Shown here piece by piece: positions 21,539 to 40,668 of a stretch of 64,000 bases of DNA (positions are counted from its first letter, which is position 1; each line of letters opens with the position of its first letter). The notes under the pieces were generated by a model. The model was given only the letters and a program-made list of their open reading frames with translations. It was not told the origin of the DNA and did no database searches. The stretch is taken from contig OZ245020.1 in assembly GCA_965223865.1 (NCBI GenBank), forward strand, positions 96,001 through 160,000. The letters run 5' to 3'. Source of the stretch: Nitrosarchaeum sp. (GTDB lineage Archaea; Thermoproteota; Nitrososphaeria; Nitrososphaerales; Nitrosopumilaceae). A program made the position numbers and the translations under genes.

Positions 21539-21545
21539 AAAAAGA

Positions 21546-22090: not shown

Positions 22091-22129
22091 TGCTGTTTAT
22101 CTTATATGGTATTTATTATATATCAGTGA

Positions 22130-22968: not shown

Positions 22969-23094
22969 ATGAAATTTTTTGTTCTTTTGATTCTAGTTGG
23001 ATTTGTAGGAATTGCTCTGACCCAATAAGTCTTGGCAGATGATGCTTCTCTTTCTTTTGATTCTAGGCTTAATTTTTCAGAAAAGGATCCATGA
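22969..23094 (+). pseudogene. Remnant of a secreted-protein gene
   Basis: MKFFVLLILVGFVGIALTQ*VLADDASL...: signal peptide interrupted by in-frame TAA just before VLA-D. Confidence 0.35.
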
Positions 23095-23138
23095 CACAGG
23101 TCATCTTCAGGGCATGGCATTATACAACAAAACAAAAA

Positions 23139-23522: not shown

Positions 23523-23596
23523 TGATTCTATGATTATTAATTATTATTTAAATCTAGTACTGGTTTTTAATAATTTTAGGTAAAATCAGGCATGTT

Positions 23597-23662
23597 TGAT
23601 TATTAACAATAACAAAAGTCATGAGGTTTTTTATTAAGTTTATATTCTATTGTTAATAATCA
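23597..23662. promoter_or_regulatory. Perfect 15-bp inverted repeat upstream of the metal ABC operon
   Basis: tgattattaacaata (23597-23611) / tattgttaataatca (23648-23662); more TTATTAA half-sites at 23534, 23567 and 23631. Confidence 0.6.
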
Positions 23663-23683
23663 TTTATAGGAAAGATATTAGAT

Positions 23684-24973
23684 ATGAATAAGAAATCATC
23701 CGTTGCTGCAATTGGAGGCGGAGTAGCTGTAGTAGTCATAGCAGGTGCAGCATTCATGTTCTCTGGAATGTCAAATGAGCAAGTATCCATAGATAACAAT
23801 TTGGTTGATGATGCAAGTGAAAATAATGTTACTCTACAAGATGATGACAAGATGAGAGTATTAGCTTCTTTTTATCCGTATTATGAATTTACAAGAAATG
23901 TGGCCGGAGATGCTGCAATAGTAGAACAGTATCTCCCATCTGGAATTGAAGCTCATGACTGGGAGCCAAGAGCTCAGGAAATTCAATCATTGAAGGATGC
24001 AGACGTTTTTGTATACAATGGATTGGGCATGGAACCATATGTTGACAACATGATTAATTCCGGAGAGTTTGACAATGTGTTGTTTGTAAAAGCATCAGAG
24101 GGAATAGATATGATGAAATCAGATGAGGATGAGCATGATGAAGCACACACAGAAGAATTTGTAGAAGAGATAAAAGAAACCATAGAAGAGTTTGAGCATG
24201 GCCACATGACTGAATCTCAGACACTTGAAAAAATTGAAGAAATTCTGCATGAGCATGAGGGAGATGGACATGATCATGGAAACAAAACAATTGAAAGTAT
24301 TGAAGATATACTACATGAAATTGAGGATGGACATATAGGCCAAGAAGATGGAATAGAAGAGATACATCACATCATTTTAAATGTTAAAGGAGATCACGGA
24401 GACGAAGAAAAAGAGGAAGAACATGACGGACACGACCATGATTTTGAATTTGATCCTCATATTTGGTTAGACCCAATTTTGGTAAAACAACAAGTAAACA
24501 ATATCAAAGATGGGCTGATCAAAGCTGACCCTCAAAACAAAGAACATTATGAACAAAATGCCACGGAATACAACAAGGAACTTGATGAATTAGACATGAG
24601 AATTAAATCGTCTTTGTCTTCATGTGACAAAGATACCTTTGTCCCATTTCATAACGCATTTACATATCTTGGAGACAGATATGGTCTTAAGATAATGGCA
24701 CTCAGTGGGGTAGCTCCAGATTCTGAGGCCTCTGCAGCAGAGATTGCAGAGTTTATTGACTTTGTAAAAGACAACAACATCAAGGTAATCTTTGCAGAAG
24801 AGTTAGTAGATCCAAGACTTGCACAAGTCATTGCAGACGAAGCAGGGGCTGAAGTTTTACTGTTTAGCCCAATTGAAGCATTGACGCTGGACGAGATAGG
24901 ACAAAACATCACTTACATTGACAAGATGGATAAAAACTTGGATGCTTTGAAGGTGGCACTTGAATGTCAATGA
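23684..24973 (+). CDS. Zn/Mn ABC transporter substrate-binding protein with long His/acidic insert
   Basis: EAHDWEP, DPHIWLDP, FHNAFTY (ZnuA/AdcA cluster A-I). Confidence 0.9.
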   Translation: MNKKSSVAAIGGGVAVVVIAGAAFMFSGMSNEQVSIDNNLVDDASENNVTLQDDDKMRVLASFYPYYEFTRNVAGDAAIVEQYLPSGIEAHDWEPRAQEIQSLKDADVFVYNGLGMEPYVDNMINSGEFDNVLFVKASEGIDMMKSDEDEHDEAHTEEFVEEIKETIEEFEHGHMTESQTLEKIEEILHEHEGDGHDHGNKTIESIEDILHEIEDGHIGQEDGIEEIHHIILNVKGDHGDEEKEEEHDGHDHDFEFDPHIWLDPILVKQQVNNIKDGLIKADPQNKEHYEQNATEYNKELDELDMRIKSSLSSCDKDTFVPFHNAFTYLGDRYGLKIMALSGVAPDSEASAAEIAEFIDFVKDNNIKVIFAEELVDPRLAQVIADEAGAEVLLFSPIEALTLDEIGQNITYIDKMDKNLDALKVALECQ

Positions 24974-25773
24974 CAAACGTCCTTGAGGTAGAAGATCTTA
25001 GCATAGGTTACAATAGTCATCTGGCAGTAGATAAAATCAGTTTTGATGTGCAGGAAGGAGACCTACTTGGAATAGTTGGGCCAAACGGAGCGGGCAAGAC
25101 AACATTATTTAGAGCAATTTTGGGACTGCAGCAATATTCTGGTAAAATCAAACTGTTTGGATTTGAAGGTTCAAAGTATCGTTCGTTGTTACCTCTGATT
25201 GGATATGTTCCTCAAAAGGTAGCATTTGAGCCAAACTTTCCTGCAACAGTATACGATATTGTCTCAATGGGAGTAATATCTGATAAAAAACTGGTCAAGG
25301 GTGCTAAACTGATTCAGCAATGTGGTTGCTGTTGGAACAGGATATACAAGAAAATTGGAAACAATGATGATAAGATAACTGAAGCCCTCAAGACTGTGGG
25401 ATTGGAATCATTGAGAAATAGAAGGATTGGTGAGCTTTCAGGAGGAGAGCTGCAGCGGGTATTTATTGCAAAATCCCTTGTAAAGGATCCTTTACTGTTG
25501 ATACTAGATGAACCGGTAACCAGTGTTGATGTAGAATCACAAACCAAATTTTACAATGTAATAAAAAAGATCAACGAGGAAAATAACATCACGATAGTCT
25601 GGTCATCCCATGACCTTGACGCAATATCAAAATATGCAAACAGGGTGGCATGCATGAACAAAAAATTGTTCTTCCATGGCGAGAAAGAGAAATTCTTCTC
25701 TGACAAGGAACTCCTCAAGACATACACTGAATCATCAATGCAGATGCATATGCACAATCATGATATGCATTGA
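24964..25773 (+). CDS. Zn/Mn ABC transporter ATPase
   Basis: GPNGAGKT, GYVPQ, LSGGE, DEP. Confidence 0.92.
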   Translation: MSMTNVLEVEDLSIGYNSHLAVDKISFDVQEGDLLGIVGPNGAGKTTLFRAILGLQQYSGKIKLFGFEGSKYRSLLPLIGYVPQKVAFEPNFPATVYDIVSMGVISDKKLVKGAKLIQQCGCCWNRIYKKIGNNDDKITEALKTVGLESLRNRRIGELSGGELQRVFIAKSLVKDPLLLILDEPVTSVDVESQTKFYNVIKKINEENNITIVWSSHDLDAISKYANRVACMNKKLFFHGEKEKFFSDKELLKTYTESSMQMHMHNHDMH

Positions 25774-25793
25774 TAATTTAGGGAATAGGCAAT

Positions 25794-26648
25794 ATGGTTC
25801 TTGAAGCTCTCTCTTATGGTTTTGTGCAAAAAGCATTGATTGCAGGAATTGCAGTTGCCTTGATCTGTTCTTTTATGGGAACATTTCTTGTGTTAAGACG
25901 TTATTCATTGTTTGGAGACGGTATAGCTCACGTTGCATTTGGAGGAGTTTCTGTTGGTTTGTTTTTGGGAGTGTTTCCATTGTGGACTGCATTTATTGTA
26001 TCCATCTTTGGTGGATTAGGGTTACAAAAGCTTAGACAGAGCACCAAGATATCAGGAGATGCAGCAGTTGCCGTAGTACTAGTTTCGGGACTGGCCATAG
26101 GAGTAATTTTGGTGAGCTCCTCAGGTGGTTTTTCAGTTGATCTGTTTAGCTTTTTGTTTGGAAGTATTTTGTTGATTAGTAATGAAGACACCATAATGAT
26201 TCTTGCAATCAGTGCAGGTATCATTGCAACACTAGTAGTAATGCAAAAGCAATTTCTCCACCTTACATTTAATGAGGAACAGGCAAAAATTGCAGGACTT
26301 CCAGTCACCTTGCTAAACTATGCATTTGTAATACTTGCATCAGTAACGGTCGTAACATCAATGAGACTGGTTGGAATCCTGCTGATATCTGCACTCATTG
26401 TCATACCAAACATTACAGCAATGATGTTTGGCAAAGGTTTTAAAAAGACAGTAGGAATATCCATGTCAATTTCAGTCATATCTGTGGTGAGTGGGATTCT
26501 TTTGTCGTACTATTACAATGTTGCACCCTCAGGAACAATAGTTATGATTGCAGTTGCTATTCTCATAGGGGTGCTTGTTGCAAAATCTGCAGGAATAATA
26601 TCAAAAACAGACATCAAGAAACAACCAGAAATAACACACAATAGCTGA
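25794..26648 (+). CDS. Zn/Mn ABC transporter permease
   Basis: GDGIAHVAFGG, FLFGSIL, VGILLISAL. Confidence 0.92.
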   Translation: MVLEALSYGFVQKALIAGIAVALICSFMGTFLVLRRYSLFGDGIAHVAFGGVSVGLFLGVFPLWTAFIVSIFGGLGLQKLRQSTKISGDAAVAVVLVSGLAIGVILVSSSGGFSVDLFSFLFGSILLISNEDTIMILAISAGIIATLVVMQKQFLHLTFNEEQAKIAGLPVTLLNYAFVILASVTVVTSMRLVGILLISALIVIPNITAMMFGKGFKKTVGISMSISVISVVSGILLSYYYNVAPSGTIVMIAVAILIGVLVAKSAGIISKTDIKKQPEITHNS

Positions 26649-27211
26649 AAAGTAATTGGCCATTCCAGTTCAACAAATTCAGATTGATTTTGTGCTTTGA
26701 AAGTCTCCCTGATGATTTTGATTCAAACAAAAGATTTGATTCAGAATTGGAAGAGCTTAGAGAAGAGAACAAAGAACTTAAACCTACCAAGATGGTGTTA
26801 ACAGGTTTGATTGTAATATCTTTGATGGTCTATTTTACATCAAGAAGATAAGCTGATGTAAAACTGATTTCGTGCAGATTGTAATCGACTAGCTATCAAC
26901 AGAGTTCTATTCTCAATACGTCAGTTTTTCAAAAGAAAAATTCACTGTCATCTGAAATTATTTTCGCACAATGACGTTGATGACTTGCATACATACGTTG
27001 TACAAACAGTCATTATCTTGTTCCATAGCCTCTATCGCAAAATTTGCTTAAAAGGTTGATTATAACTGCCATGGTAAATTGGGCTAAAAATCCATCAATC
27101 TAATCAGTTGTGCTATTAGGCACAACTGATCAATTACCTGCTTTGAACATCGGCCACATCAACTTTCATGCCTACATAATAACTCAAAACTACTTTACGA
27201 TATTGCCAAAG

Positions 27212-27373
27212 ATGAGATGTCCAAATTGTGGAAACCAATCCAGTTGGAGGGATCCAACTTGTAACAAATGTGATAGTGTCTTGCATCAAAAAAATTGCAA
27301 GGCAAAGGCATCTGACTGTAAATGCCATGAAATTAACGAACAATCTTGGAATGACAAAAAATCCAAAGAATGA
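27212..27373 (+). CDS. Cys-rich zinc-ribbon microprotein
   Basis: MRCPNCG...CNKC...C...CKCH; ATG at 27212 inside the track ORF. Confidence 0.55.
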   Translation: MRCPNCGNQSSWRDPTCNKCDSVLHQKNCKAKASDCKCHEINEQSWNDKKSKE

Positions 27374-27426
27374 TCCTACCTAATGTGGTGCAAATCTCTT
27401 TTTTTATCCATAATTCTTGCTTAATG

Positions 27427-28719
27427 CTAGAAATCGACTCTAAAACTATTGTCCAAATTTGTTGATTTGATCATGGCATATTTTTTTAGTTTCATCAGAT
27501 CCTGTTTTTTCATGTATTTCGATGATTCGTCAACGATGTTATTCATGATCTCTATTCCTTCTTTGGCGCCTTTAGACAGTCCCAACCTGTACAGTAATGG
27601 CAGTTTGGCCATAGAGTTATGATGATTTGAATTATTTTTTACTTCTTTTGTGGTAAACTTTTGAACAATCATGCTTAGATATTTTTCTAAATTATCTGTC
27701 ATATCTCTTTCTAGCTTTGTATTTTTTTCTTTTAATGCCAATGCAAGAATCCCTTTAATCTTTAACAGGGCTTGATTGGTTTCTACCTTGTCTAGCTTCT
27801 TAGGGGGTATTTTTATCTCAAAAATTTTTTCAGTTGTAGTTGCAATATACTCTATGGCCTCTTTTCTGCAAGATGCCTTTGTTTGTCCAAAAGGACAGTT
27901 GTCACAATTTGTGGTGTGATACCTGATTCCACTATCTCCAAAACTAGAATGAACAATCTTGTTTTTATTTCGTAATTTCTTCATTATTCTAGAAACAGTT
28001 CCCTCATCCAGAGATAGCAGTTGGGATATTTCGGTATTAGAATAAGAGCCATCATCAATTAGCTTCAATACGTCTTCTTCCAGCTCTCCTGGAGAACGTC
28101 TGTACATCTCTTCAATGGCATCAGCCAAGTGATGACCGATGTATTTCTTGTCAATATGGTTGATGGTCAGTCTTGAATTTTCAAATGATGCATCAAACCC
28201 TGACTTTATTTCTTCCTTTATGATTTTTTTTAACGTTTTCTCCAAGTTAGGTATTTTGAATCCCTCTAACTGTTTTTTGATATCTGCTAATGATATTGTT
28301 TTTTTCCCAGAGCTGAATAGGTGATACAATGACCAACGTATCTGACGCTCATCGCTTCGTTCAATTAACCGCAATAGATCACAGATTTCTTCAATTTTGC
28401 TCCATTTGACATCCAGCAAGACATCAGACTCATCAATTAACACATTCACATTGCGTAATTTTTTTGTAAATTTATTTAATTTCTTCTTGATTTGGCTGTT
28501 CGAATAATCTGTTTTTTGTTTTAATTTTGATGATTTAATTCGTTCCAGGTATTTATCAACCAGCTGGTCTTTTTCTATAATGTGCTCATTTCTTAAATCA
28601 TCTGTATCATATTTTAGCATCTCAAAAAAATCCATCGATTCTCCAAGAATTGAAGACGGCTCAAAGGTTCTTAGTACAGCTAAATTTGTTACAGACAACC
28701 CCATGTCTTTATATATCAA
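27427..28719 (-). CDS. Large hypothetical regulator with wHTH followed by a CxxCPFG..C motif
   Basis: SNTEISQLLSLDEGTVSRIMKKL then TNCDNCPFGQTKASCR. Confidence 0.7.
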   Translation of the reverse strand: MIYKDMGLSVTNLAVLRTFEPSSILGESMDFFEMLKYDTDDLRNEHIIEKDQLVDKYLERIKSSKLKQKTDYSNSQIKKKLNKFTKKLRNVNVLIDESDVLLDVKWSKIEEICDLLRLIERSDERQIRWSLYHLFSSGKKTISLADIKKQLEGFKIPNLEKTLKKIIKEEIKSGFDASFENSRLTINHIDKKYIGHHLADAIEEMYRRSPGELEEDVLKLIDDGSYSNTEISQLLSLDEGTVSRIMKKLRNKNKIVHSSFGDSGIRYHTTNCDNCPFGQTKASCRKEAIEYIATTTEKIFEIKIPPKKLDKVETNQALLKIKGILALALKEKNTKLERDMTDNLEKYLSMIVQKFTTKEVKNNSNHHNSMAKLPLLYRLGLSKGAKEGIEIMNNIVDESSKYMKKQDLMKLKKYAMIKSTNLDNSFRVDF

Positions 28720-28984
28720 TTTGATTATTTATGCGTATCAGTTCAACTAGTTGGTAAAATTGAAATTTTATTCATGTGATTAATTAGAATCTATTTTTAT
28801 TCAATTATTTCTGATGATGTTCAATCAGGTTAATTTGTGAGTAAGTTAAATTCCATATGGCCACAAAAATTTTGAATGTCAACAATTGCGGTTACAAAAA
28901 TACAGAAAAATTTTTCTTTCATTACAATATCTGAATGTATTCCAAATGACAATTATGGGTTAAAGATCAAACAGGAGTCATGGA

Positions 28985-29935
28985 TTGAATAAACTTCCAG
29001 TTTTTGTTTTTTTCACTTTAGGTTTTATTTTACTAAATTCGTTTATTTTGCCTAATAGTTTTGCCCAATCTGAATTTTCTACAGACTTTTTGTATGAACC
29101 AGGAATTGATGCAATTACTGCATTTGCTACTACGGTTGCAGAATCTGCCCCGAAAATTATTGCAGCAGTAATATTGTTGATTATTGGTCTAATTGCAGGC
29201 AAAGTAATTGGAAAAGTAATTGAAAAATCTGCATCAAAGATACTAAAACAAGTTAACAAAAATGATAATGACAATGGAGATGCGATAACAAAAACCACAT
29301 CATCAAAAGATTCTTCAAAACTAATTGCTGCAAGTGTGCGATGGTTTGTTTATCTGTTCTTTATCATTGCTGCAATAAATGCACTCGAGTTTGAACAGCT
29401 CTCTTCAGCATTAACTAACTTGTGGGTTTGGGTACCAAATCTTCTTGCATTCATACTAATTGTGATAGTGGGATTAATTATTGTCAATTTTATTGGAAAA
29501 TGGCTTGATCAAGAACTAATCAAAAAAGAATTTGGTGGCTCTAAATATGTCATCATAGGCGTCAAGGTAATCATTTATGCCATTATCTTCTCAATTGCTC
29601 TTACACAGTTAGGCATTGGAGACACAATTATTCCAATTCTGGTATCTGCATTCTCCTGGAGTGTGGCAATAGGAATTGGTGCAGCAATTGCAATAGGCCT
29701 GGGATTTGCACTAAAAGACGTACTTCCCGCAGCAATCAATACTGCCACAAAACAAAAATCTGTGCTAAAGGTGGGCCAAAAGGTAACAATAGGTGAGAAT
29801 ACAGGAACATTGGCTGCAGTGGAATTGCTACATCTTATCTTGGTTACAGAGGATAACAAAAGCATAGTTATTCCAACTAAAACGCTTGAAGATAACACCA
29901 TCACTATACTGGGAGACATTGCTAAAAATGACTAG
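28985..29935 (+). CDS. MscS-like mechanosensitive channel (TM-helix repeat type)
   Basis: PKIIAAVILL / PNLLAFILI repeats, AIGLGFALKD, C-terminal beta domain. Confidence 0.75.
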   Translation: MNKLPVFVFFTLGFILLNSFILPNSFAQSEFSTDFLYEPGIDAITAFATTVAESAPKIIAAVILLIIGLIAGKVIGKVIEKSASKILKQVNKNDNDNGDAITKTTSSKDSSKLIAASVRWFVYLFFIIAAINALEFEQLSSALTNLWVWVPNLLAFILIVIVGLIIVNFIGKWLDQELIKKEFGGSKYVIIGVKVIIYAIIFSIALTQLGIGDTIIPILVSAFSWSVAIGIGAAIAIGLGFALKDVLPAAINTATKQKSVLKVGQKVTIGENTGTLAAVELLHLILVTEDNKSIVIPTKTLEDNTITILGDIAKND

Positions 29936-30047
29936 AACAAATTCAATTATTTCTAAAATCAACAAAGAGAAGATAATCATCTATCCTTGGCCTGAAAAAG
30001 AAGGCGAACTTGCATTTCTAGTTGAAAACCTTGAGGAAATCGATTAG
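29928..30047 (+). CDS. Possible 39-aa microprotein overlapping the mscS-like stop
   Basis: MTRTNSIISKINKEKIIIYPWPEKEGELAFLVENLEEID*. Confidence 0.35.
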   Translation: MTRTNSIISKINKEKIIIYPWPEKEGELAFLVENLEEID

Positions 30048-30144
30048 CAGCCTTGTTTCCAATAATCCACAAAAATAATTTCAGAATAGAAAAATTCTCA
30101 AATTTTCAGTATTTTGGAAGTCATGACAATGATTAATTTTCAAT

Positions 30145-30684
30145 GTGTGTTTTCTGGTCATCAGAAAATCAATCTTCAAACCTATCATGATTCAACTTCT
30201 GACATTCTATGTACTCTATGCGGAAAGATGTGGAGGCGATATAGAGATGAAGAATTTTAAAAATATTCTTGTAACTTATGTAAAGCCAACAAACAAGGAA
30301 ACTGCGTTTAACATGGGTCTGTCCTTGGCAAAATCCAACAGCTCCAAATTATCGGTTGTAGAATTTCTCTCTGCAGACCAGCCTGAACTTCTCTTCTTTA
30401 AGACAAAAAAGAACAAAGAAAAAGAGGAGAAGCAAAAGAGAATAGTGGAAGATGCCCTGAAGAAATTTGAGGAAAAAGCAAAACAAGAAAATATCAAGCT
30501 AAACACATCATTTCAGTCAACTGAAAACTTGGTGGACAGCATACTCCAATACGTTGAATCAAACAAGATAGATCTATTGATAGTTGATCATCCCCACATG
30601 TCTCATTCAGAGGAAACACACTACAACGACATGGTTAGTGCAATCCACGATGAGGTTCACTGCAATATGCTGACTCTAAAATAA
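30145..30684 (+). CDS. Universal stress protein (likely start MKNFKNILV at 30247)
   Basis: FKNILV...IDLLIV USP fold; ATP motif degenerate. Confidence 0.75.
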   Translation: MCFLVIRKSIFKPIMIQLLTFYVLYAERCGGDIEMKNFKNILVTYVKPTNKETAFNMGLSLAKSNSSKLSVVEFLSADQPELLFFKTKKNKEKEEKQKRIVEDALKKFEEKAKQENIKLNTSFQSTENLVDSILQYVESNKIDLLIVDHPHMSHSEETHYNDMVSAIHDEVHCNMLTLK

Positions 30685-30751
30685 AAAAAGGTATGAAAAA
30701 TATGGTTTGAGGATGTTTTAAGTATGAATTTTGGAAATAGTCTAGTGAGCA

Positions 30752-31195
30752 TTGGTAAGTGAAAAAATGCAACACTATGATGTCAGAAAAATACTAGTGC
30801 CACTTGATGGTTCACAAAATTCCTTTAGAGGATTGAACAAGGCAATCTATTTTGCGAGGCAATGTGGCGCAACACTTACCGGATTGTATGTTAGCCAAAA
30901 GCCATCAAGATATGGATTTGACACAGTTGAGGATTTAGACTCGTTCAAAAGAAAACACATTGATACATTTATGGAAAAGGCAAAAAATATGGCTGGTAAA
31001 AACGGCGTAGATCTTAAGAGGAAGATAATCCACGGTTCTACTAAAAAGGATATTCTTAACTTTGCAAACAGATGGAACTATGATCTAATTGTAATTGGTT
31101 CCAAGGGTGCAGGCTCTACAGATGAATCATTTATTGGAAGTGTTACAAACCACATACTTCACACATCCAAGATTCCTGTTTTGGTTGTAAAATAA
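30752..31195 (+). CDS. Universal stress protein
   Basis: ILVPLDGS, DLIVIGSKG, GSVTNHILH...PVLVVK. Confidence 0.92.
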   Translation: MVSEKMQHYDVRKILVPLDGSQNSFRGLNKAIYFARQCGATLTGLYVSQKPSRYGFDTVEDLDSFKRKHIDTFMEKAKNMAGKNGVDLKRKIIHGSTKKDILNFANRWNYDLIVIGSKGAGSTDESFIGSVTNHILHTSKIPVLVVK

Positions 31196-31630
31196 TAAGA
31201 TGAAATCATCTTCTTATCTTTGAACATGTCAAGATACAAGCACCCATAACACTTTCTATGATTGTTCTTAATTCAATCAACCATTCTTGTAAAAACAATT
31301 CATAATTTGTAATTATTAAACTTCTAATCATATGGCAATTACGATAACTAATACCGAAATTATTACATTTTTTGACATCTTAAGTCAAACCCTGAATGCC
31401 AGAATGGAGTCAACTCTTTTCTCTTTGTTATTTTCATTATTATTGGTCCTAGAGCAGGTATGCTCAAAAATAGCTTTTTACATTTTGTAGATTATCAATC
31501 TTGATTACCATAATTGAATCATTCAAACGACTTTTTGTGATTGTGTTATTGCAATACCATAACTCGCATATCAAAAATGAAAATCATAACGTCAGAATAA
31601 ATATTACAATACAGAAAATTAGAGATCTAA

Positions 31631-33274
31631 ATGTCACAACAGGTTGGAACCACTTCAGAAGGAGTTCCTGTAATTTTACTCAAGGAAGGAACTAAACAGT
31701 CACGTGGACGTGACGCCCAGAGAAACAACATAAGAGCTGCAAAACTAATTGCAGAAATTATTCAGACAAGCCTTGGTCCACGAGGAATGGACAAGATGCT
31801 GGTTGATTCTCTTGGTGATATAACAATCACAAATGATGGTGCAACCATACTAAAGGAAATCGATGTGCAGCATCCTGCAGCAAAGATGATGGTAGAAGTT
31901 GCAAAAGCCACAGACAGTGAGGTTGGTGATGGTACCACATCCGCAGTTGTCTTGGCGGGAGCCCTGCTTGAAAAGGCAGAATCTCTAATTGATGATGAAA
32001 TTCATCCTGTAATAATTGCTGATGGTTACAAAAAGGCATTAAAAAAAGCAATAGAATTTCTCTCTGAGATCACAATCAACGTAGAGTCAAAAGACAAGGA
32101 AGTACTTGAAAAGATAGCAAACACGTCGATGCAGACAAAACTTGTGTCAATTGAGGCAACTGACCTTGCCAAACTGGTGGTTGATGCCGTGTTAAAAGTC
32201 ATTGAAGAAAAAAATGGGAAATTTAAGGTAAATCTTGATAACATAAAGATAGAAAAAAAGGCAGGTGGTTCTATCTCTGACAGCGAACTGGTAAGCGGTA
32301 TAATACTTGATAAGGAGATAGTTCACAGTGGGATGCCAAGAAAGATTGAAAATGCAAAGATTGCTTTGATCAGCGACGCGCTTGAGATCAAAAAGACAGA
32401 GTTCGAGGCCAAACTAAACATCTCATCGCCAAACCAGATAAAGTCCTTCATGGAAGAGGAAAGCCAGATACTAAAAGACATGGTAAACAAGATAAAATCA
32501 ACTGGCGCAAATGTTGTCTTGTGCCAAAAAGGTATTGATGATATTATTCAGCATTATCTGAGCAAGGAAGGGATGCTTGCAGTTAGAAGAATCAAGGAAA
32601 GCGACATGACAAAGCTTGCAAAAGCAACTGGGGGAAGAATAGTTGGAAGAGTCGATGACCTAAATGACGCTGAATTGGGCCTGGCTGAAAATGTGGAGGA
32701 GAGAAGAGTGGAGGAGGATAACTGGGTGTTCATTGAAGGATGCAAGAACCCAAAGGCCATTAGTATTCTTGTACGGGGTGGCTCTCAGAGGGTGATTGAT
32801 GAGGCAGACAGGTCTATGCATGATGCATTGATGGTGGTAAAAGATGTTATTGAAAAACCAGCAATAGTATATGGAGGAGGTGCTCCTGAAGCATTTATTG
32901 CACTAAAACTTAGAGAATGGTCAAAGACGCTTTCTGGCAGGGAACAGCTTGCAGTAGAAAAGTTTGCAGATGCCTTGGAATCTATTCCACTTGCGCTTGC
33001 AAGAAATGCTGGAATGAATCCCATTGATACAATCACCCAATTACGATCAAAACAGAGTACAGGAGAAAGGTTCACCGGTGTCGATGTCATCAATGGGACA
33101 ATTGCAGATTTTGAAAAACTGCGGATAATGGAGCCAGTCAAGGTCAAGGAGCAGATAATAAAGTCAGCTACTGAGACTGCAAACATGATACTGCGAATCG
33201 ACAATGTTGTTGCGTCCTCAAAAGGTTCTGCTATGCCACCAACTGGAGGAATGCCTGGAATGGGAATGGAATAG
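31631..33274 (+). CDS. Thermosome (group II chaperonin) subunit
   Basis: [35 protein letters not shown] tail. Confidence 0.96.
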
Positions 33275-33548
33275 CCAAACGGCAGGTTTGCCCGGTTGAC
33301 AATGAATGATTCAAGTGTTACTTGAACAAGTGGGAATGTATGAGAGGTAATCATAGAACTCCTGCATTGATACTCTATCATGGAGAACTATGCCAGTATT
33401 TTGAGTATTAAAATGGACGCAGATAGATTTGCACATCTAATGCTGATTACAGAGCATTGACCACACAGAAAAAAAGTCTTACGAACAGAATTTCAGTTTT
33501 GCAAATATGATGCTAGGTTTTATTATTATAAATTAAAATCGGTCATAG

Positions 33549-34754
33549 ATGGTATCAGAGTTCGATGTAGTTCCAACAATTATCGGGGTTTTATTTTTAG
33601 TTTTACCCGCGTTACTTTTGGGCAGGCTATGTTCTCATTTTAAAATACCGGAAATCATCGGATTTGTTTTTGCAGGAATAATCTTAGGTCCTACTGCTCT
33701 AGGAGGCTTAATTCCAATTTTTGACAGACCAATTGTTGAACTAAATGATGTGATGCTAGCTTTATGGCAAATTTCTGGAATTATAATTCTATTTTCAGCA
33801 GGGTTACATTTTACATTTCATGACCTAATCAAGGCAGGTCCAAAGGCTGCAATAATTGGAATTTTTGGGGTAATTGTGCCACTTGTTACAGGATACTTTA
33901 TTGTACTTTGGATTGGTTTTGACTGGACAGTTGCAGTACTAATTGGAGCAACGTTTAGTGCCACAAGTATTGCGGTATCAATAGTAATTTTAGAAGAATT
34001 AGGAAAAGAGAAAAGCAAAGAAGGAAATATTTTGGTCAATGCAGCAGTGCTGGACGATGTTTTAGGTCTTGCAATTCTTTCTGCAGTAATTTCTTTGGTT
34101 GCATTAAATACAATTCCAACAATAGAATCTGTAGCAATTACAACTGTAACTGAAATAGGATTTTGGTTTTTGATATTACTTGGTGCAGTCTATATTCTAC
34201 CAAAAATTGTACATGTCGTTTCTAGAACACATCCATCTACTTTGGAAGCTAGAGGTACAAGACAAGGTGTTGCATTAGGTTCTGCATTTGGTTTAGCTGC
34301 AATTGCAGCTAGTGTCGGGTTAAATCCTATCGTAGGTGCTTTTGCAGCAGGTATGGGTCTTGCAGGATCAAAACTAGTAGTACAGGTTAGAGAATTTGTT
34401 GGCAGATTACAAGTGATTGTTTCACCTTTATTTTTTGCAATAATTGGTGCTCATGTAGACATCACACAAATCTCATCAATCAACTGGGGTTTGTTTGCAA
34501 TACTTTTAGTTGTAGCAGTAGTTTCTAAAGTTCTTGGCTGTGGAATACCCGCATCGCTTCTGCTAAAAAGTAAGAAAAGTGGTTTTCGAATTGGATATGG
34601 GATGGTAGCTAGAGGAGAAGTAGCATTCATTGTTGCAGGAATTGGATTGGCTTTTGAGGTACTTTCAGATGAGATTTATTCTACAATGATCTTTGTGATT
34701 TTGGCCACAATTTTCATTGCACCAATATTACTGAGAAATTCATTCAAATCATAA
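33549..34754 (+). CDS. Cation:proton antiporter (CPA2/NapA-like)
   Basis: ATSIAV, AAVLDD, GAFAAG, GMVARGEV. Confidence 0.92.
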   Translation: MVSEFDVVPTIIGVLFLVLPALLLGRLCSHFKIPEIIGFVFAGIILGPTALGGLIPIFDRPIVELNDVMLALWQISGIIILFSAGLHFTFHDLIKAGPKAAIIGIFGVIVPLVTGYFIVLWIGFDWTVAVLIGATFSATSIAVSIVILEELGKEKSKEGNILVNAAVLDDVLGLAILSAVISLVALNTIPTIESVAITTVTEIGFWFLILLGAVYILPKIVHVVSRTHPSTLEARGTRQGVALGSAFGLAAIAASVGLNPIVGAFAAGMGLAGSKLVVQVREFVGRLQVIVSPLFFAIIGAHVDITQISSINWGLFAILLVVAVVSKVLGCGIPASLLLKSKKSGFRIGYGMVARGEVAFIVAGIGLAFEVLSDEIYSTMIFVILATIFIAPILLRNSFKS

Positions 34755-34810
34755 TTTTTTTAAAAAAATTATTACGTGTGGATGCTTTTCTTAACCTCAA
34801 ATATATCCCC

Positions 34811-34824
34811 AAGCACATCCTGCT
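34811..34824 (+). repeat. 14-bp target-site duplication, left copy (AAGCACATCCTGCT)
   Basis: Identical to 40379-40392; abuts the left TIR. Confidence 0.92.
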
Positions 34825-34896
34825 GGGGTACTATAACAGCGCTCCATTTAACGCCCCCTGGATAGTATACCAAAAAGGGTCCTGATCAGTAACCTT
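34825..34896 (+). repeat. Left terminal inverted repeat, 72 bp, starts GGGGTACTATA
   Basis: Reverse complement of 40307-40378 with 3 mismatches; first 36 bp perfect. Confidence 0.95.
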
Positions 34897-34972
34897 GAAA
34901 CTTGTTATGAAACCAAACGACTACACACAACAAAAAATAACTATTCCGAGGATAAAGCCAATTCATTCGTGA

Positions 34973-35644
34973 ATGAATATGGAAACTGACCCTGATGATT
35001 TACAGAAAATGAGCGAATTGGCCAATTGGTTTGAACAGCGCAAAAATGAAATTCCAAACATAGACAGATTAATTCACAAACTTAGAAACGACCAACAATT
35101 AGGGCACCTTGTCAATGCACAATTTGTAAAACAATTTCATGAAGATGGAACTTTCAGAGTTACTGATGTTGAAGCCAGCACTGGCGATAACGATGTAGAT
35201 ATCGAGTTAGACCATAAAATCAATATTCAAACTTGGCACGGACAAAGCACAGCAGGACACATTATGGAGTCTCAATTTGACAGGAAGGGAATGCAACGAA
35301 ATGTACGGTTAGGGAACATTTCCCCGTTGGGGGGAATCAATAGTGATTTTGATAAAGACTGTCAAGTCATGAAAAAGAAACTAAGTCAATTACCTGATGA
35401 CAATTTCGGCATGGTTTTACTGTTAGACAGATTTGTTGGAATGACAATTTTTCCAGATTGGTGGGACGAGATTTCAGATAACAAATGTGTGGTTAAACTG
35501 AGTTACGTCAGTCACGATACGGGATTCGATAACGTATACGGAGAATCTGTAGTATATCATTCAGATAATTTCCAACAAATGAATAAAGCAAAAGAAATTA
35601 TCAAAGCATTAAAGTTTAATTTCAAAGCAGAAAATATTCCGTGA
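34973..35644 (+). CDS. Hypothetical protein (possible PD-(D/E)xK-like)
   Basis: 223-aa ORF; E...D.DIELD..INIQ segment weakly nuclease-like. Confidence 0.65.
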   Translation: MNMETDPDDLQKMSELANWFEQRKNEIPNIDRLIHKLRNDQQLGHLVNAQFVKQFHEDGTFRVTDVEASTGDNDVDIELDHKINIQTWHGQSTAGHIMESQFDRKGMQRNVRLGNISPLGGINSDFDKDCQVMKKKLSQLPDDNFGMVLLLDRFVGMTIFPDWWDEISDNKCVVKLSYVSHDTGFDNVYGESVVYHSDNFQQMNKAKEIIKALKFNFKAENIP

Positions 35645-35656
35645 ACTGAAATACAA

Positions 35657-36355
35657 TTACTTTGTAATGTGCCCTTTCAGTCTGTCGACGATTCTATGTA
35701 CTTCCTTTTCTGAAAACTGTTCCTTTCTGCCTTCAATAAATGAATTAATTCTATTCAAATCCGTAACTGAAACAAACCTGTAATTGGAATTGTATTTCAT
35801 ATTTCCACGGACAGATAACAAGACACTTGTGACGGGAGGGTTTTTCGGACTACGCCAGGATTTTAATGCAATCCATAACACTCTTCCAGCTCTGTCTACC
35901 TGTTCATGCGGACTGAGGTTCTCGTTTTGATTATAGTATTGGGTGCTCCAGTTTTTGACTTCGATTAGAACTATTCCTCTATTAGACACTACGACAAAGT
36001 CCATTTGTGCAGATTTTAGATTCTTTCTTCCATTGTAAGTTACGTAGTTTGGCAATTCAAAATTTAATCCACACATGACATGAAAATTATCAGACAGTTC
36101 AGATAGTTTTCCCAAGACACTTAATTCCCCATTTGCACCAGCATGGAACGGGTCGTCCTTGTTTTTCTCAAACCTGTTAACCTGTCTTTGTTTGTTCCAT
36201 TTTTTGATGCCTCCAAAAAATCCCTTGTGTTCTGCCTTTAGTTCTTCTTTTAATTCCTGATGAACTCTGTCAATGTCTTCTATTTTCTTTACTTTTCTCG
36301 GATACAAGTCAAGAAGTTCTTTTTCACTTTCAGCACGACCGTAAATTATGGCCAA
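35657..36355 (-). CDS. NERD-domain (nuclease-related) protein
   Basis: GANGE...QMDFVVVSNRGIVLIEVKNW...SPHEQ. Confidence 0.85.
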   Translation of the reverse strand: MAIIYGRAESEKELLDLYPRKVKKIEDIDRVHQELKEELKAEHKGFFGGIKKWNKQRQVNRFEKNKDDPFHAGANGELSVLGKLSELSDNFHVMCGLNFELPNYVTYNGRKNLKSAQMDFVVVSNRGIVLIEVKNWSTQYYNQNENLSPHEQVDRAGRVLWIALKSWRSPKNPPVTSVLLSVRGNMKYNSNYRFVSVTDLNRINSFIEGRKEQFSEKEVHRIVDRLKGHITK

Positions 36356-36453
36356 TATAGTGACGTTTGTATATTATTGAAAAAACGTTTTGTTTTACAA
36401 AAACCCTGTTTTTTAAAAAAGCATTTAACTCAACAATCCAAACCTCATACATC

Positions 36454-37249
36454 ATGCAAATGAAGAGATTTCGAGTCCAGAATTACAAGAAGGTTGAAGA
36501 TACGGATTGGGTAAAATGTGATAATCTAACTGTGTTTGTAGGGAAAAATGAGTCAGGCAAATCGGCCATTTTTAGAGGTCTTTCAAAACTTAACCCCTCA
36601 GATGGTGAAATCTATGATGCACTTAAGGAATTTCCAAGAAGGAGATACTCTGAATATAAAAATAGAATTTGGCCTGTGAGTAGTGCTGAATTTGAGTTAG
36701 AAAAAAATGAAATTGAAAAACTTTGCGAAATTTGTGACCCACTTAGAAAAATAAAAAGCGTTATTGTAACTAGATTTTATGACGATAGTCTGAAGGCTGA
36801 ATTTGAACCAAAACCAGATATTGATTCGTTATTAGTAAAAGATTACTTAAACTCAATAAAATCATGGAAAAAACAAATTGAAAAAACTGTAGCCCCTGAA
36901 GGAAAAGGGGAAATTTTAGGGCAAATTAAAAATAATTTTAATCAAGTATTTGATAGTACAATTGCCAAATTAACAGATGAAGATGAACTGTCTTCCGTTG
37001 ATTCTACAATAGTTAAAGAAGTAACAGATACACTCAATTCTAACATCAATGAAGAATGGCAACAAAAAATATTTGATTCAGTTATTGAAGAAAATGACAA
37101 ACTTTCAACAAGAATTGAAAAACGAGATGATTTAGAAAATGCAAAAAATTGGATTTATGAAAATATACCTCAATTCATTTATTTTGATAAATATGATGTT
37201 TTAGATAGTGCAGTTCACATAGACCGATTTATCCAAGACTTGAACAAAG
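36454..37249 (+). pseudogene. OLD/AAA_15-type ATPase, C-terminally truncated
   Basis: FRVQNYK and VGKNESGKS Walker A; no Walker B or signature motif; reads into unrelated sequence after ~37250. Confidence 0.75.
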
Positions 37250-37525
37250 ACACTATCCAAGAAAATAAATCTCAAACCTGCTGGAATTACAGTAAAATCC
37301 TTGAAGGGGAGGTGGGGCAGCGCAACATCCAAAGGAATCATTACTCTGAATTCTAATTTAATTAAGACGCCAAAGAAGGTAATTGATTACATCATAATTC
37401 ACGAATTGTGTCACTTGAATGTAAAGGAACATTCCAGAACATTTTGGAATCTTGTTTCAAAGTATGACAAGGACTATACTAAAAAGGAAAAGTGGTTGTC
37501 AGACAACCATGTAAAAATATCCTGA
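37250..37525 (+). pseudogene. YgjP/M48-like zinc metalloprotease, C-terminal fragment
   Basis: LSKKINLKPAGITVKSLKGRWGS...IDYIIIHELCHL..KEHS..FW; N-terminal part missing. Confidence 0.8.
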
Positions 37526-37537
37526 GTGCTTTCTAGG

Positions 37538-38029
37538 TTAATCATCTCCTGTCAAGACATGAAGTGCAATTAATCCAATCAATAAAAGTACCAATCCAAA
37601 CTGTCCATGCAACAACCTGTTGAAGACTTTTGTGTGTCTTGAGGAAGTGTATTTCAACAGAATTCCGCTAATCATCAAGACTGTCATTGTAATTGCCAAT
37701 GACAGAGAAATGGAATCCAAGTCATTTACAAGAAGCAGTCCATGCGACATTCCTGCAAAATAGCCAATTGAATTAAGAATAATGTGAAAGTTCAGAACTG
37801 GTTTGTAAAATTGAACTGCCTGTCTTGCCATCACTAATGATTGACCGCCTGCGCGTACAGCGTATTTTCTCCACTTGTTAAATACGATAAAAGGTAGATT
37901 TGCGACAACTCCTGCACCAATAGCCACCCATCCCAGGCTCTCTACTGCGTCTTCAGCGTCATCGTCTGCAAATACGGGTATTGGTACTAAAAATAATAGA
38001 AAAATAATAGGGAAAATTTTGAGATTCAT
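37538..38029 (-). CDS. Membrane protein, ~4 TM with His residues in the helices (possible heme b)
   Basis: Signal peptide; LNFHII, MSHGL, LLHGQ, ALHVL. Confidence 0.7.
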   Translation of the reverse strand: MNLKIFPIIFLLFLVPIPVFADDDAEDAVESLGWVAIGAGVVANLPFIVFNKWRKYAVRAGGQSLVMARQAVQFYKPVLNFHIILNSIGYFAGMSHGLLLVNDLDSISLSLAITMTVLMISGILLKYTSSRHTKVFNRLLHGQFGLVLLLIGLIALHVLTGDD

Positions 38030-38033
38030 CGGA

Positions 38034-38357
38034 TCAACTCGATTTCATCTGAGGTCTTTTGGCTTTGTAGATTTTGTATCCCGTATATGCAACAGAGCCT
38101 ACAATCACTGCAATGGTTCCATAAAGAATTGCATCTGGTATCCCTCCGCCTAGTGCAAGTCCCTCATCATCGTCATCTTCCTCATCATCTCCTCTTTCCC
38201 TTTCCTGTTCTCTTGCTTGTTCTCTTTCAGTCTCACCAAATCCTCTCTGTTCATCATCTTCATACTCATCATCGTCATCTTCATCAGCAAAGACTGTGGG
38301 AACTGTAACAACAGAAAGTGTTAGAATCAAAAATAGACCAAGTGTGAGTGCCTTCAT
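38034..38357 (-). CDS. Secreted acidic low-complexity protein with C-terminal TM
   Basis: Signal peptide, D/E tracts, TM helix plus basic tail. Confidence 0.7.
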   Translation of the reverse strand: MKALTLGLFLILTLSVVTVPTVFADEDDDDEYEDDEQRGFGETEREQAREQERERGDDEEDDDDEGLALGGGIPDAILYGTIAVIVGSVAYTGYKIYKAKRPQMKSS

Positions 38358-38770
38358 TGCTTTCTCACCCTTGTGCTTTCATGTTGCAACCATGGCTCTT
38401 TTCTGATTTGAGCCCATGCCAGTACGGAACCAATTACTACTCCTACTTGAAGTACTTTTGATACGATTCCCAAATGTCCTATTCCTCCAGCACTCATTCC
38501 GAAAACTGCAGCCATGTCAGTTCTTGTAACTGCATACAATGCAATTATTCCAACAGTTCCAGCTATTGTTACAGCATATGGAAGTGAACTGTTTGAACTC
38601 TTTAGCATCCAGACTGCAACTGGAATGTAGGCAACTGCCACAACCAAGAAGAATGGACCTTTTATCATGTCTTGTTCTTCAAACAACTCTTCTGATGTCT
38701 CTACAAAATAAACAGTAGAAGTTGCTATCATAAGACCAACAACAATTCCAATTATTGATTTTTTGTTCAT
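38354..38770 (-). CDS. 4-TM membrane protein
   Basis: Hydrophobic; YAVTRT, SKVLQ; overlaps the next gene. Confidence 0.7.
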   Translation of the reverse strand: MNKKSIIGIVVGLMIATSTVYFVETSEELFEEQDMIKGPFFLVVAVAYIPVAVWMLKSSNSSLPYAVTIAGTVGIIALYAVTRTDMAAVFGMSAGGIGHLGIVSKVLQVGVVIGSVLAWAQIRKEPWLQHESTRVRKQ

Positions 38771-38810
38771 GATACTATTACGTGAAAGTGAATATAATGC
38801 GTATTCATCA

Positions 38811-38827
38811 TTCCCAAATTTTGGGAA
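38811..38827. promoter_or_regulatory. Palindrome TTCCCAA-ATT-TTGGGAA, candidate operator
   Basis: Perfect 7-3-7 inverted repeat upstream of the 38770 operon; matches 39494-39510. Confidence 0.6.
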
Positions 38828-38834
38828 CGGTTTG

Positions 38835-39173
38835 TTATTCTGAAAACTTTTGCCAAAGCCTTACAATCTTGTCTTCCATCTTTACATGTTCAAGTTTGTA
38901 TGACAGTTCTCCATCTCTAAAAGTTACAATAATTTCATAGGTCCAGTTTTTGTAATAGCTTTCATCAAGGCCTTCCAAAGTTCTTACTACTTTGGTCTTC
39001 TTTACAATGTGTAGTTCTTCCAGCTTTCGTGTCTTGCGGTATGCAGTTGACTGTGGAATGTTTAGCAGATTGGAGATTTGCTGTATGGTGAGTTCTGTTT
39101 TTGACAATAGTGTTATTATCTTTCTGCTCTGTTTGTCAGACAACACATCAAGAATTTCGTCTGTTTCATCCAT
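38835..39173 (-). CDS. ArsR-like winged-HTH regulator
   Basis: LSDKQSRKII...IQQISNLLNIPQSTAYRKTRKL; C-terminal DKIVRLW. Confidence 0.85.
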   Translation of the reverse strand: MDETDEILDVLSDKQSRKIITLLSKTELTIQQISNLLNIPQSTAYRKTRKLEELHIVKKTKVVRTLEGLDESYYKNWTYEIIVTFRDGELSYKLEHVKMEDKIVRLWQKFSE

Positions 39174-39174
39174 T

Positions 39175-39441
39175 TCAGCTTCGTTTTACAGCCAATATCA
39201 GAACAATAAAACCTGCAATCTCGATTCCTTCTTCTAATATTTCTCCTAGTATATGGTCTTCAAACACAGAAACAACATCCCCCATTATGGTATCGCCTAT
39301 TACTATTAATGAAAAACCAACCGCTAGAAGGGCCATTGGAGGATATTTTGTCTTCTTGAATGCCTTCATAGCAAGGTAAACCAAGGCAAAACCAACTATG
39401 ATGTGAATAACTAGTATGGCGTAATGAATTTCCTGAACCAA
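39175..39441 (-). CDS. Small 3-TM membrane protein coupled to the HTH regulator
   Basis: LAMKAFKKTKY.PM.LLAVGF...EIAGF; 1 bp from the HTH start. Confidence 0.75.
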   Translation of the reverse strand: MVQEIHYAILVIHIIVGFALVYLAMKAFKKTKYPPMALLAVGFSLIVIGDTIMGDVVSVFEDHILGEILEEGIEIAGFIVLILAVKRS

Positions 39442-39493
39442 TATTTCTCCTCCATTCTAATTGTGATTCTGGATTTAAAGGACATATCTACCA

Positions 39494-39510
39494 TTCTCAT
39501 GAATTGAGAA
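39494..39510. promoter_or_regulatory. Palindrome TTCTCAT-GAA-TTGAGAA, candidate operator
   Basis: In the divergent region between the HTH pair and the Met-rich gene; same 7-3-7 form as 38811-38827. Confidence 0.55.
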
Positions 39511-39627
39511 TCATTTTTGGAGATTCTAAATTTTGATTAGCTGTTACAAAAATTTGAAATCAAGTTTGATTTTCATTAGTGAAAATTATATAATCTGTAT
39601 ATACTTTGCAAGGCTATTTTCTGTAAC

Positions 39628-40293
39628 ATGGTAAGTCAGTATGTCTGGATTGGCATTGCTGTTGGAGTTTTTGTAGCAGGCATTGGAATTGGTTTTGCAG
39701 CATTACAGGGCTCATCTCCAGCACCAGTTATGATGTCTCCTCAACAAATGCCACAGATGATGTCTGACCCTGAATTTAGGCAACAAATGAGAGACAACAT
39801 GAGCCAAAATCGACAATTTATGCAAGAGGCAATGCAAGACCCAGAATACATGCAACAGATGCATTCAACGATGATGGAAAACAGACAACACATGCAAGGA
39901 ATGATGGGTCCTATGATGAATTCCATGATGGATGATCCTGAATTAAGAGAAGAGATGATGAATACAATGTCACAACATCAGGCAATGATGCAGTCTATGA
40001 TGCAGAATCCAGAAATGATGAATATGATGAATCAGAATATGATGGGGTCAGGTATGATGGGACAAGGCAAAGGAATGATGAGTGGAGGTATGGGCCAGAT
40101 GATGATACAGGACCCTGAGTTGCTAGAGCAATTCAAACAACAAAAACTAGAACATCAAAAAATAATGAATGAGTTAATGTCTGGAGATATGAATGACCCA
40201 GCAGTACAACAGAAGCTCAAAGACCAGATTGAAGAACATCAAAAATTCATGGACGAGTTAATGAATCAGCTTAATTCTCAAACTGGTCCATAA
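39628..40293 (+). CDS. Membrane-anchored Met/Gln-rich protein (MMxDPE repeats)
   Basis: N-terminal TM; MMSDPE, MQDPE, MMDDPE, MMQNPE, IQDPE repeats. Confidence 0.8.
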   Translation: MVSQYVWIGIAVGVFVAGIGIGFAALQGSSPAPVMMSPQQMPQMMSDPEFRQQMRDNMSQNRQFMQEAMQDPEYMQQMHSTMMENRQHMQGMMGPMMNSMMDDPELREEMMNTMSQHQAMMQSMMQNPEMMNMMNQNMMGSGMMGQGKGMMSGGMGQMMIQDPELLEQFKQQKLEHQKIMNELMSGDMNDPAVQQKLKDQIEEHQKFMDELMNQLNSQTGP

Positions 40294-40306
40294 ATTCTAT
40301 TTTTCA

Positions 40307-40378
40307 AAGGTTACTGATCAGGACACTTTTTGGTATACCATTCAGGGGGCGTTAAATGGAGCGCTGTTATAGTACCCC
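40307..40378 (-). repeat. Right terminal inverted repeat, 72 bp
   Basis: Ends ...TATAGTACCCC; inverted copy of 34825-34896. Confidence 0.95.
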
Positions 40379-40392
40379 AAGCACATCCTGCT
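40379..40392 (+). repeat. 14-bp target-site duplication, right copy
   Basis: AAGCACATCCTGCT, identical to 34811-34824. Confidence 0.92.
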
Positions 40393-40668
40393 GCCATTAC
40401 GATTTGAACCACTTTTCAGAGTGCAAAATAAATCGGCCTAACTATATCCCCAGACAGGTTGTACTTCCAACTAATTTTGAACCGATTGTAAATACTTCTC
40501 TGAGATTAGTGATTGTATTTTTTTGTCTAACTACCAGCAAGGCTGAATTTGAGCTTCGTAGTTTATCTTCATTTTAATGAATATTCATCCAAATTTCATC
40601 TATAAAATAAACAAGTTTAAAGAAAAATTATTTCAGATTTAACTTCTAGTTTGACTATTACTCATTGT

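Follow-up and report, generated by a model that had tools for sequence, protein, structure and literature searches.

A probable casposon-type integration hotspot with nested insertions at tRNA-end-like leaders in a member of the Nitrosopumilaceae

Casposons are regarded as ancestors of the CRISPR adaptation module, and to our knowledge a natural case of a leader and repeat that have been freed from a host gene and accumulate inserts has so far been missing. The terminal inverted repeats (TIRs) of the Aciduliprofundum boonei casposon start GGGGATAT. The family-2 casposase of this organism uses as its target the motif TCAAATC located 8 bp upstream of the target site duplication (TSD), integration duplicates 14 bp, and the first two bases of the TSD matter while its distal half has little specificity, according to the part of PMC6614799 drawn on here. 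Published family-2 elements sit in a functional tRNA-Pro gene, and for the archaeal group considered here the sections used of PMC6563490 give a single family-2 casposon, in a tRNA-Pro gene, next to family-1 casposons that occur as tandem pairs. The same sections describe tandem casposons, of family 2 in Methanosarcina and NitNF5-C1/C2 in ef-2, for which the target is re-used and the TSD is common to neighbours. Family 1 is characterised by an ef-2 target, a 13-bp TSD, an ATAA ruler, a TTT leader, ends that finish with TTCTA, and a casposase without an HTH domain (PMC8464041, in the portion used), and a family-1 Cas1 has been reported in Nitrosarchaeum (PMC12097351, likewise in part). Pseudo-tRNA leaders, leader-bearing ends, nested arrays and cargo-only derivatives are not described in the casposon literature covered here, which was taken without its supplementary tables.

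Here we show how a locus in a window of 64,000 nucleotides (the whole stretch of DNA that was analysed, from the genome referred to as G000) compares with these systems. Its positions 34755-40483 likely form, in our judgement, the leader-side end of an integration hotspot of casposon type in a member of the Nitrosopumilaceae, at which a box-guided casposase would have made nested insertions. An earlier note on this DNA had proposed two T-loop-mimic target sites of identical geometry, neither of them inside a tRNA gene, and both parts of that proposal hold. On the minus strand, site B reads GGTTCAAAAT-TAGTTGGA-AGTACAACCTGTCT-GGGGATATAG (40483..40442) and site A reads GGTTCAAATC-GTAATGGC-AGCAGGATGTGCTT-GGGG (40410..40375), both found where they had been placed and at a distance of 73 nt from each other. 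The pattern GGTTCAAA-N24-GGGG has two matches in the window versus none in 100 dinucleotide shuffles, and four on contig C1 of G000 versus 0.105 expected from word frequencies, a frequency above background on which the note had made its reading depend. ARAGORN finds tRNAs in the window only at 2797-2871, 3887-3962 and 15143-15227, none of them at sites A or B, and no family in an Rfam scan matches the sites, for which reason a tRNA or other RNA gene was rejected; folding of the T-arm by hand, also with end and leader together, yielded no tRNA either.

In site A, TCAAATC occupies positions -15 to -9 relative to the TSD and is followed by 8 nt and the 14-bp TSD, which is the geometry published for A. 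boonei and, with the first TSD bases, the likeness to a family-2 target (PMC6614799, in the part cited above). Motif and spacing are thus exact, yet the site is no tRNA gene and appears to be a decayed tRNA-Glu-like end. In site B the box is TCAAAAT instead of TCAAATC. The two sites agree at 11/18 positions of the leader and 7/14 of the 14-nt repeat, so that by their sequences they are not recent duplicates of one another, and the 14-mer of site A is atypical, agreeing with the consensus at 9/14 positions. The next five features lie on the minus strand. Leader B, GGTTCAAAATTAGTTGGA, which is a pseudo-tRNA T-loop box, spans 40466..40483 and is followed at 40452..40465 by its 14-nt repeat R(B), AGTACAACCTGTCT, one of the AGCACAACGTGTAT-like junction 14-mers. 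Then comes a casposon-type end of 41 nt (40411..40451), taken to be the end of an outer, decayed element and assigned to class T1b (GGGGATATAGTTAG...TTTTGCAC), which shares its start with class T1a (GGGGATATAGTTAG-N13-ACCCACGTGGAA). This end passes straight into the internal leader A, GGTTCAAATCGTAATGGC (40393..40410), which begins 42 nt inside the T1b end and whose TCAAATC stops 8 nt before the leader-proximal copy of the TSD, AGCAGGATGTGCTT (40379..40392). A second copy of R(B) is absent from the window; its sole near match, with two mismatches at 51927, was rejected as the partner copy because element ends are absent beside it. Beyond those at 34810, 34825, 40378 and 40451, the window has no casposon-type ends.

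The 14-mer of site A had been called a TSD, and an exact second copy does lie at 34811..34824 (minus strand). Between the two copies, the inverted repeats 34824-34896 and 40307-40379 are 73 nt long and 96% complementary, and 34825..40378 is therefore a TIR element with a 14-bp target duplication, for which site A was the insertion point. This non-autonomous element of 5,554 bp, with TIRs that start GGGGTACTATAACAGCGCTCC (end class T4), carries as cargo a NERD-domain nuclease (35657..36355, minus strand; Pfam E 1.1e-11), an AAA_15-type ATPase (36367..37356, plus strand) whose AriA/GajA-like matches are weak and fall short of the Pfam cut-off, and a winged-HTH regulator of ArsR/TrmB type with a Csa3-like HTH part (38835..39173, minus strand), its remaining ORFs being small or without recognised function. 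No Cas1 was found among 8 of its ORFs searched against Pfam and 9 against PHROGs, nor did the element show a PolB, an integrase or a recognisable transposase domain. For a 223-aa ORF beside the left TIR, Pfam, PADLOC and PHROG were without a match, and ESM Atlas leads did not exceed 0.89. The neighbours of the element are ETF genes in one direction and a Na+/H+ exchanger gene in the other. The distal TSD copy is immediately followed by a solo, decayed T1a-like end of 56 nt, GGGGATATATTTGAGG...CCACACGT (34755..34810, minus strand), which abuts the stop codon of the exchanger gene and is probably what an earlier insertion left behind at the same inner site.

The T4 end is also present on five metagenome contigs (1.3-4 kb), where the flanks differ and each junction has the same layout. 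It follows a leader and 14-mer on L201, a T1a end and 14-mer on L202 and L203, a T1b end and an inverted 14-mer on L199, and a degenerate leader on L200; of these five contigs, only L203 has interior sequence in common with the T4 element of the window. T4 is a mobile family whose insertion sites are those of the T1 ends. With its ends and TSD, its lack of a transposase and its varied sites, it has the features of a non-autonomous, cargo-only derivative of a TIR transposon. Searches with the T4 end returned no match in viral contigs and one weak match in 250 other genomes of the family. The five metagenome contigs, at 1.3-4 kb, bear no casposase, and T4 was never found beside one.

Site B belongs to a repeat of ~75 nt that consists of the leader GGTTCAAATTTGAnTGGG, a 14-mer near AGCACAACGTGTAT and then an element end. 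At a threshold of at most 9/32 mismatches, G000 contains 14 look-alikes of leader and 14-mer, against 0, 2, 0, 0 and 0 for five shuffles of the consensus. All 14 continue into a casposon-type end or a remnant of one, with no pristine empty site among them, and only some of the ~14 leader copies stand behind a T1b end. Solo ends are common in G000, and at six further places the same 14-mer lies between two ends, the first of them in reverse complement. At C1 1337346-1349068, an element of 11.7 kb with T1a ends and an exact TSD sits beside a leader and carries cargo genes only; the order at this 1349-kb locus is that of the window, with an intact element beside the leader and a decayed one distal. 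About 110 nt upstream are common to only 3/11 sites in G000 (C1 283068, 1349100 and 1475939, all leader/14-mer/T1a units), and because of these three units the copied unit must sometimes be larger than the leader; a common upstream unit as the general vehicle of the leader was rejected on the same count. At C1 650180-650305, a leader and the 14-mer AGCACAGCATGTAT precede a 93-bp insert whose ends are not clearly inverted, after which come a second, exact copy of the 14-mer and a degenerate end; the arrangement is either a very short insert at the leader-proximal repeat or a deletion remnant.

Where does this repeat come from? Its consensus, GGTTCAAATTTGAATGGG followed by AGCACAA, has a counterpart in the real tRNA end GGGTTCAAATCCCGATGGGAGCACCA of L101, where an end of the same class occupies the site, and it also matches the 3' end of the G000 tRNA-Glu(ctc) gene, which ends GGGTTCAAATCCCGACGGGAGCA and is unoccupied. 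A scan of public genomes for TTCAAA-N24-GGGGATATAG gave at least 116 matches, with ~277 chance matches expected for 16 specified bases, and the junctions were sorted by their T-stem, counted as intact with at least 4/5 Watson-Crick pairs. Among the matches listed, ends of the GGGGATATAGATA type, with the start given above for the A. boonei TIRs, adjoin an intact T-stem in 14/15 junctions at real tRNA 3' ends, where the TSD starts CCC, and several of these are in records titled Thermoplasmatota or Thermoplasmata. Ends of the GGGGATATAGTT type make up at least 30 of the rows listed, two of them spurious bacterial ones, and of the 28 remaining only four have an intact T-stem, L101 being one of them; many of these listed records are titled Nitrosopumilus, Nitrosarchaeum or Nitrosopumilaceae. 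To judge from these sequence matches, leader and 14-mer together appear to be a decayed copy of a tRNA-Glu-type 3' end that is no part of a tRNA gene, and together with the target geometry this supports the T-loop mimicry of the earlier note.

The same note had also supposed that the outer element brings its own landing pad inside its end, and that later elements made use of it. The exact pattern TTTTGCAC-N8-18-GTTCAAA occurs at 51 places in 401 genomes, 37 of which were inspected. Since a reversed-pattern control is about equally frequent, the raw count shows no enrichment, and support for the nested landing pad comes from the recurrence of the module and the exact occupancy of inner leaders. 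A T1b start lies directly upstream in 10 of the 37 inspected places, which makes these exact modules of the 41-nt end plus leader, distributed over six genomes of at least two genera (the window, G073, G336, G233 with two, G385 with four, and G391); degenerate copies exist in L082 and at G000 1978004. In five of the ten modules another end begins exactly after leader, 8 nt and 14 nt. The occupants are T4 in the window, T1a in G073 and twice in G385, and, at G385 1770215, a second T1b and leader module with the same 73-nt period, forming a nest in the manner of a Russian doll. All five used inner 14-mers begin with AG(C/T)A, and none of the unused ones nor that of the degenerate copy in L082 does, one of them beginning with AGCG. 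Second 14-mer copies were not found in the stretches around the other four occupied modules, and no casposase was found on the G385 and G073 pieces. In G233, a unit that has identical 14-mers on both sides (1436818-1444954) ends in the module; the inner site is empty here, and the unoccupied leader runs on into unique interior DNA. Both suppositions are supported by these modules.

Does an inner leader of this kind serve as a target at all? The inner TCAAA box could primarily be a subterminal site that the casposase binds for the element's own transposition, in which case its use as a target would be a by-product and no adaptation for spreading pads. We consider this possible, if rather doubtful. 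The box has a fixed position at ~+42 to +44 from the end in 10/10 exact modules, another subterminal box, CCCACGTGG, is conserved at about this position in T1a ends, and half of the inner boxes (5/10) are unused, all of which would suit a binding site. However, the T1b ends of L116, L146, G030 275395 and G000 1200681 do without a good box, and an AG(C/T)A border as at canonical targets follows the used boxes only, because of which a target fits better than a pure binding site. Alternatively, nothing would have been carried, and site B with its 41-nt end would be a solo remnant that came to lie by chance beside an independent pseudo-tRNA target A. The missing partner end in the window, the abundance of solo ends in G000 and the low agreement between the two sites, which excludes a recent duplication of one from the other, are in keeping with such a coincidence; we nevertheless think it improbable, as end and leader recur with the same spacing in six genomes of at least two genera, and as in the G233 unit mentioned above the leader continues into unique interior between identical flanking 14-mers.

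More distant explanations would do away with the casposase altogether. As tRNA genes are the target of 39/68 integrative elements in this archaeal group (PMC6563490, in the sections used) and the leader is tRNA-derived, the repeats might be att sites of tyrosine-recombinase elements that target tRNAs, or else the ends might belong to ordinary DDE transposons. Against this speak the long TIRs with an exact 14-bp duplication and without att direct repeats, the T4 element having neither an integrase nor a transposase domain, the presence of the same junctions at the borders of the casposase-encoding units of G233, and a geometry that is that of a casposase target, and we hold this explanation to be very improbable. 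Hardly any credence at all, in our opinion, is due to the idea that the units are small RNA genes or regulatory boxes with a coincidental likeness to casposon targets: they are indeed intergenic, multi-copy and ~75 nt in size, tRNA or rRNA genes are 130-210 nt away from some of them, and two short palindromes are present inside them, but no Rfam family matches the units, and kilobase inserts split them precisely at the border of 14-mer and GGGG while duplicating the 14-mer.

The preferred reading, insertion by a casposase at box-containing leaders, calls for an enzyme that G000 itself does not encode. While 83/251 sampled genomes of the family have Cas1 genes, several of them for proteins of 405-435 aa, and a DNA search found the leader/14-mer/end unit in 18/251, a PF01867 search of G000 (99.98% completeness) gave no Cas1, and tblastn for the casposase returned short relics only. 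One of these is the relic of a family-2-type casposase gene in the window (26651..26701, minus strand), with 16/18 residues identical to residues 60-77 of the G233 casposase and 51 nt that are 86% identical. A possible second relic lies at C1 1430020-1430073, where 18 aa are 78% identical to G233 residues 244-261 (E 0.037). In G030, of the same genus as G000, the casposase genes are truncated only. Matches to PF00136 in G000 are located at 1326613 and 1100367, both outside the T4 element; the latter (C1 1100367-1101119, E 4.8e-16, in a 483-aa frame) is a partial match to family-B polymerases, additional to the 861-aa chromosomal PolB.

Intact casposase genes between the same ends and 14-mers are present in G233. 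Here the 14-mer AGCACAATGTTATT has six copies, one of them with a leader, each flanked by T1 ends, and together they form an array (L059-L063, C1 1415217-1497947) of at least five units, 8.1-21.6 kb in size. A Cas1 of ~410 aa is borne by three of them. For the one that was tested (410 aa), the best solved match is PDB 6opm, the Methanosarcina mazei casposase (E 3e-69, residues 2-402). The array has no PolB by PF00136 and PF03175, and a 944-aa ORF in it has no Pfam or PDB match. Measured against family 2, these units have a Cas1 that matches 6opm, TIRs and identical 14-mers; as PolB was not detected, such relatives are casposase-encoding TIR elements and no canonical self-synthesising casposons. 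The five internal 14-mers of G233 are inverted relative to the leader copy, and so are those at 1055-1080 kb in G000, for which inversion between inverted ends may be invoked as an extra assumption.

As such, the locus resembles family 2 most closely. It has in common with AciBoo-C1 (Aciduliprofundum boonei) and NitNCS1-C1 (Ca. Nitrosotalea okcheonensis) the TIRs and the 14-bp TSD, the casposase of its relatives aligns over its full length to the family-2 casposase 6opm, and, among the matches listed, ends that start like GGGGATATAG are found also at real tRNA ends in Thermoplasmatota- or Thermoplasmata-titled records. Unlike the published family-2 elements in their functional tRNA-Pro gene (PMC6563490, in the sections used), the elements here occupy what appears to be a decayed, tRNA-Glu-like leader outside tRNA genes, at ~14 per genome. 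Furthermore, the TSD starts with AG(C/T)A here versus CC in published family-2 elements, the element of the window lacks both Cas1 and PolB, PolB was not detected in the casposase-bearing relatives, and one end class bears a leader of its own. The likeness to tandem casposons lies in the re-use of the same target and in elements being parted by a common TSD; those published are pairs at a host gene, whereas here at least five units make up an array (G233), and the arrays mix autonomous with cargo-only units and show nesting inside an element end. With family 1 of Nitrosopumilus (NitAR1-C1), the locus shares the host family and a Cas1-type integration needing leader and TSD. None of the family-1 features (ef-2, 13-bp TSD, ATAA, TTT, TTCTA, HTH-less casposase) is found, however, and a family-1 identity was rejected on this misfit of the junction sequence with the features in PMC8464041, as far as the portion used describes them.

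CRISPR spacer acquisition offers a further parallel, in that a leader motif stands at a fixed distance from the insertion point, a short repeat is duplicated with each insertion, and at just two loci in G000 the intact unit adjoins the leader with the decayed unit distal. Here, by contrast, the inserts are of kilobase size and have TIRs, the repeat is 14 bp long, and there is no crRNA or effector. A CRISPR array as such was rejected, the inserts being 5.5-21 kb and cas1 being absent from the genome.

How could the locus have come about? The integrase would belong to the family-2 type of casposases, Cas1 homologues with an HTH at the C terminus, and would since have gone from the genome and left the 51-nt relic. 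It would recognise the T-loop-like box TCAAA(T/A)(C/T), make a first cut 8 bp downstream at the border of leader and AG(C/T)A, and a second cut 14 bp further on, from which the 14-bp duplication would result. An element with a T1b-class end would have integrated at leader B, and with this end, which would natively bear a second leader 42 nt inside, the inner target would have arrived. A T1a-class element would then have entered the inner leader, 56 nt of its end remaining, before the 5,554-bp T4 cargo element entered the same leader on its proximal side, presumably moved by such a casposase supplied in trans. The position of the intact T4 beside the inner leader, with the older remnant distal, is consistent with leader-proximal insertion, as judged from two loci only.

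A wider proposal follows the same lines, namely that casposon-type elements of the T1b class carry a working copy of the leader for their own integrase, by which each insertion would plant a new pad, leading to nesting and to a spread uncoupled from tRNA genes. We consider the case for and against this carriage to be about evenly balanced; the self-propagation of the array that the earlier note had in mind is likewise inferred. If the proposal is true, the locus represents a naturally occurring step from a site-specific casposon towards a CRISPR-like leader-repeat array that stands on its own, and it could explain the origin of ~14 pseudo-tRNA targets in a 2-Mb genome. What the comparison brings forward in any case is that the target of a family-2-type casposase appears here as a decayed, multi-copy mimic of a tRNA end, that one 14-bp repeat borders at least five units in a single array, that the same sites are used by cargo-only elements, with defence-like genes among the cargo of some, in a genome in which the integrase is lost, and that one end class brings a leader along. 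Box, 8-bp spacing and AG border yield specific predictions open to in vitro test. Moreover, casposon arrays suggest themselves as sites at which islands turn over and genomes of ammonia-oxidising archaea are rearranged.

The surroundings of the locus bear on its outer element. Coming from the ETF side, homology to G030 (89.6%) breaks off precisely at GGTTCAAA in site B, and at the orthologous place G030 has a leader, 14-mer and T1a end of its own. At the other border, the two genomes are syntenic again from the HisRS gene onwards (window 17000-18572, 92%), with 21.5 kb of G000-specific DNA in between versus 14.5 kb of other DNA in G030. As the two flanks of the window locus lie 1.4 Mb apart there, G030 offers no simple empty site. 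The outer mobile region that had been postulated for this locus is thus matched by ~21.5 kb of locus-specific DNA behind site B that contains the casposase relic. Apart from the end and element described above, this island extends over 18926..34754, from the HisRS gene towards the leader, and includes genes for an SNase-like protein, wHTH proteins, NikR and ZnuABC, MscS, two Usp proteins, a thermosome paralogue and the Na+/H+ exchanger. No T1b partner end of the outer element was found in the window. At C1 1977976-1978060, a T1b-like end in reverse complement is followed by AGCACAACCTGTCT and a degenerate module of T1b and leader-like sequence; AGCACAACCTGTCT agrees with the 14-mer of site B at 13/14 positions, including two otherwise rare bases, and it may be to this place that an inversion across the contig start has removed the partner end of the outer element.

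Several observations on the neighbouring genes can be added. The NikR and ZnuABC block (23088-26655) is 93.5% identical to a differently placed stretch of G030 (10583-14153) and ends a few bases inside the casposase relic. The Na+/H+ exchanger gene (33549-34754 versus G030 C1 274002-275395, 83% at the nucleotide level) is the sole stretch common to both neighbourhoods, and in both genomes it lies directly beside a casposon-type end, which is on the 3' side of the gene in G000 and on the 5' side in G030, where the gene is found 190 nt behind a leader/14-mer/T1b end; the gene may be cargo. For the thermosome (Cpn60/TCP-1) gene in the island (31631-33274), the best DNA of relatives is 77-78% identical and at other loci, and paralogues are at 66-69%, so it looks like an extra paralogue in mobile DNA. 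ETF beta, in the stretch 40983-44915 that adjoins with ETF alpha and a FixC-like oxidoreductase, is present in 3/7 genomes of the genus, and the ETF flank may be accessory DNA itself. Lastly, at 60517-60957 the window contains a 147-nt unit three times in tandem, at 100%, 94% and 87% identity to the reference copy.
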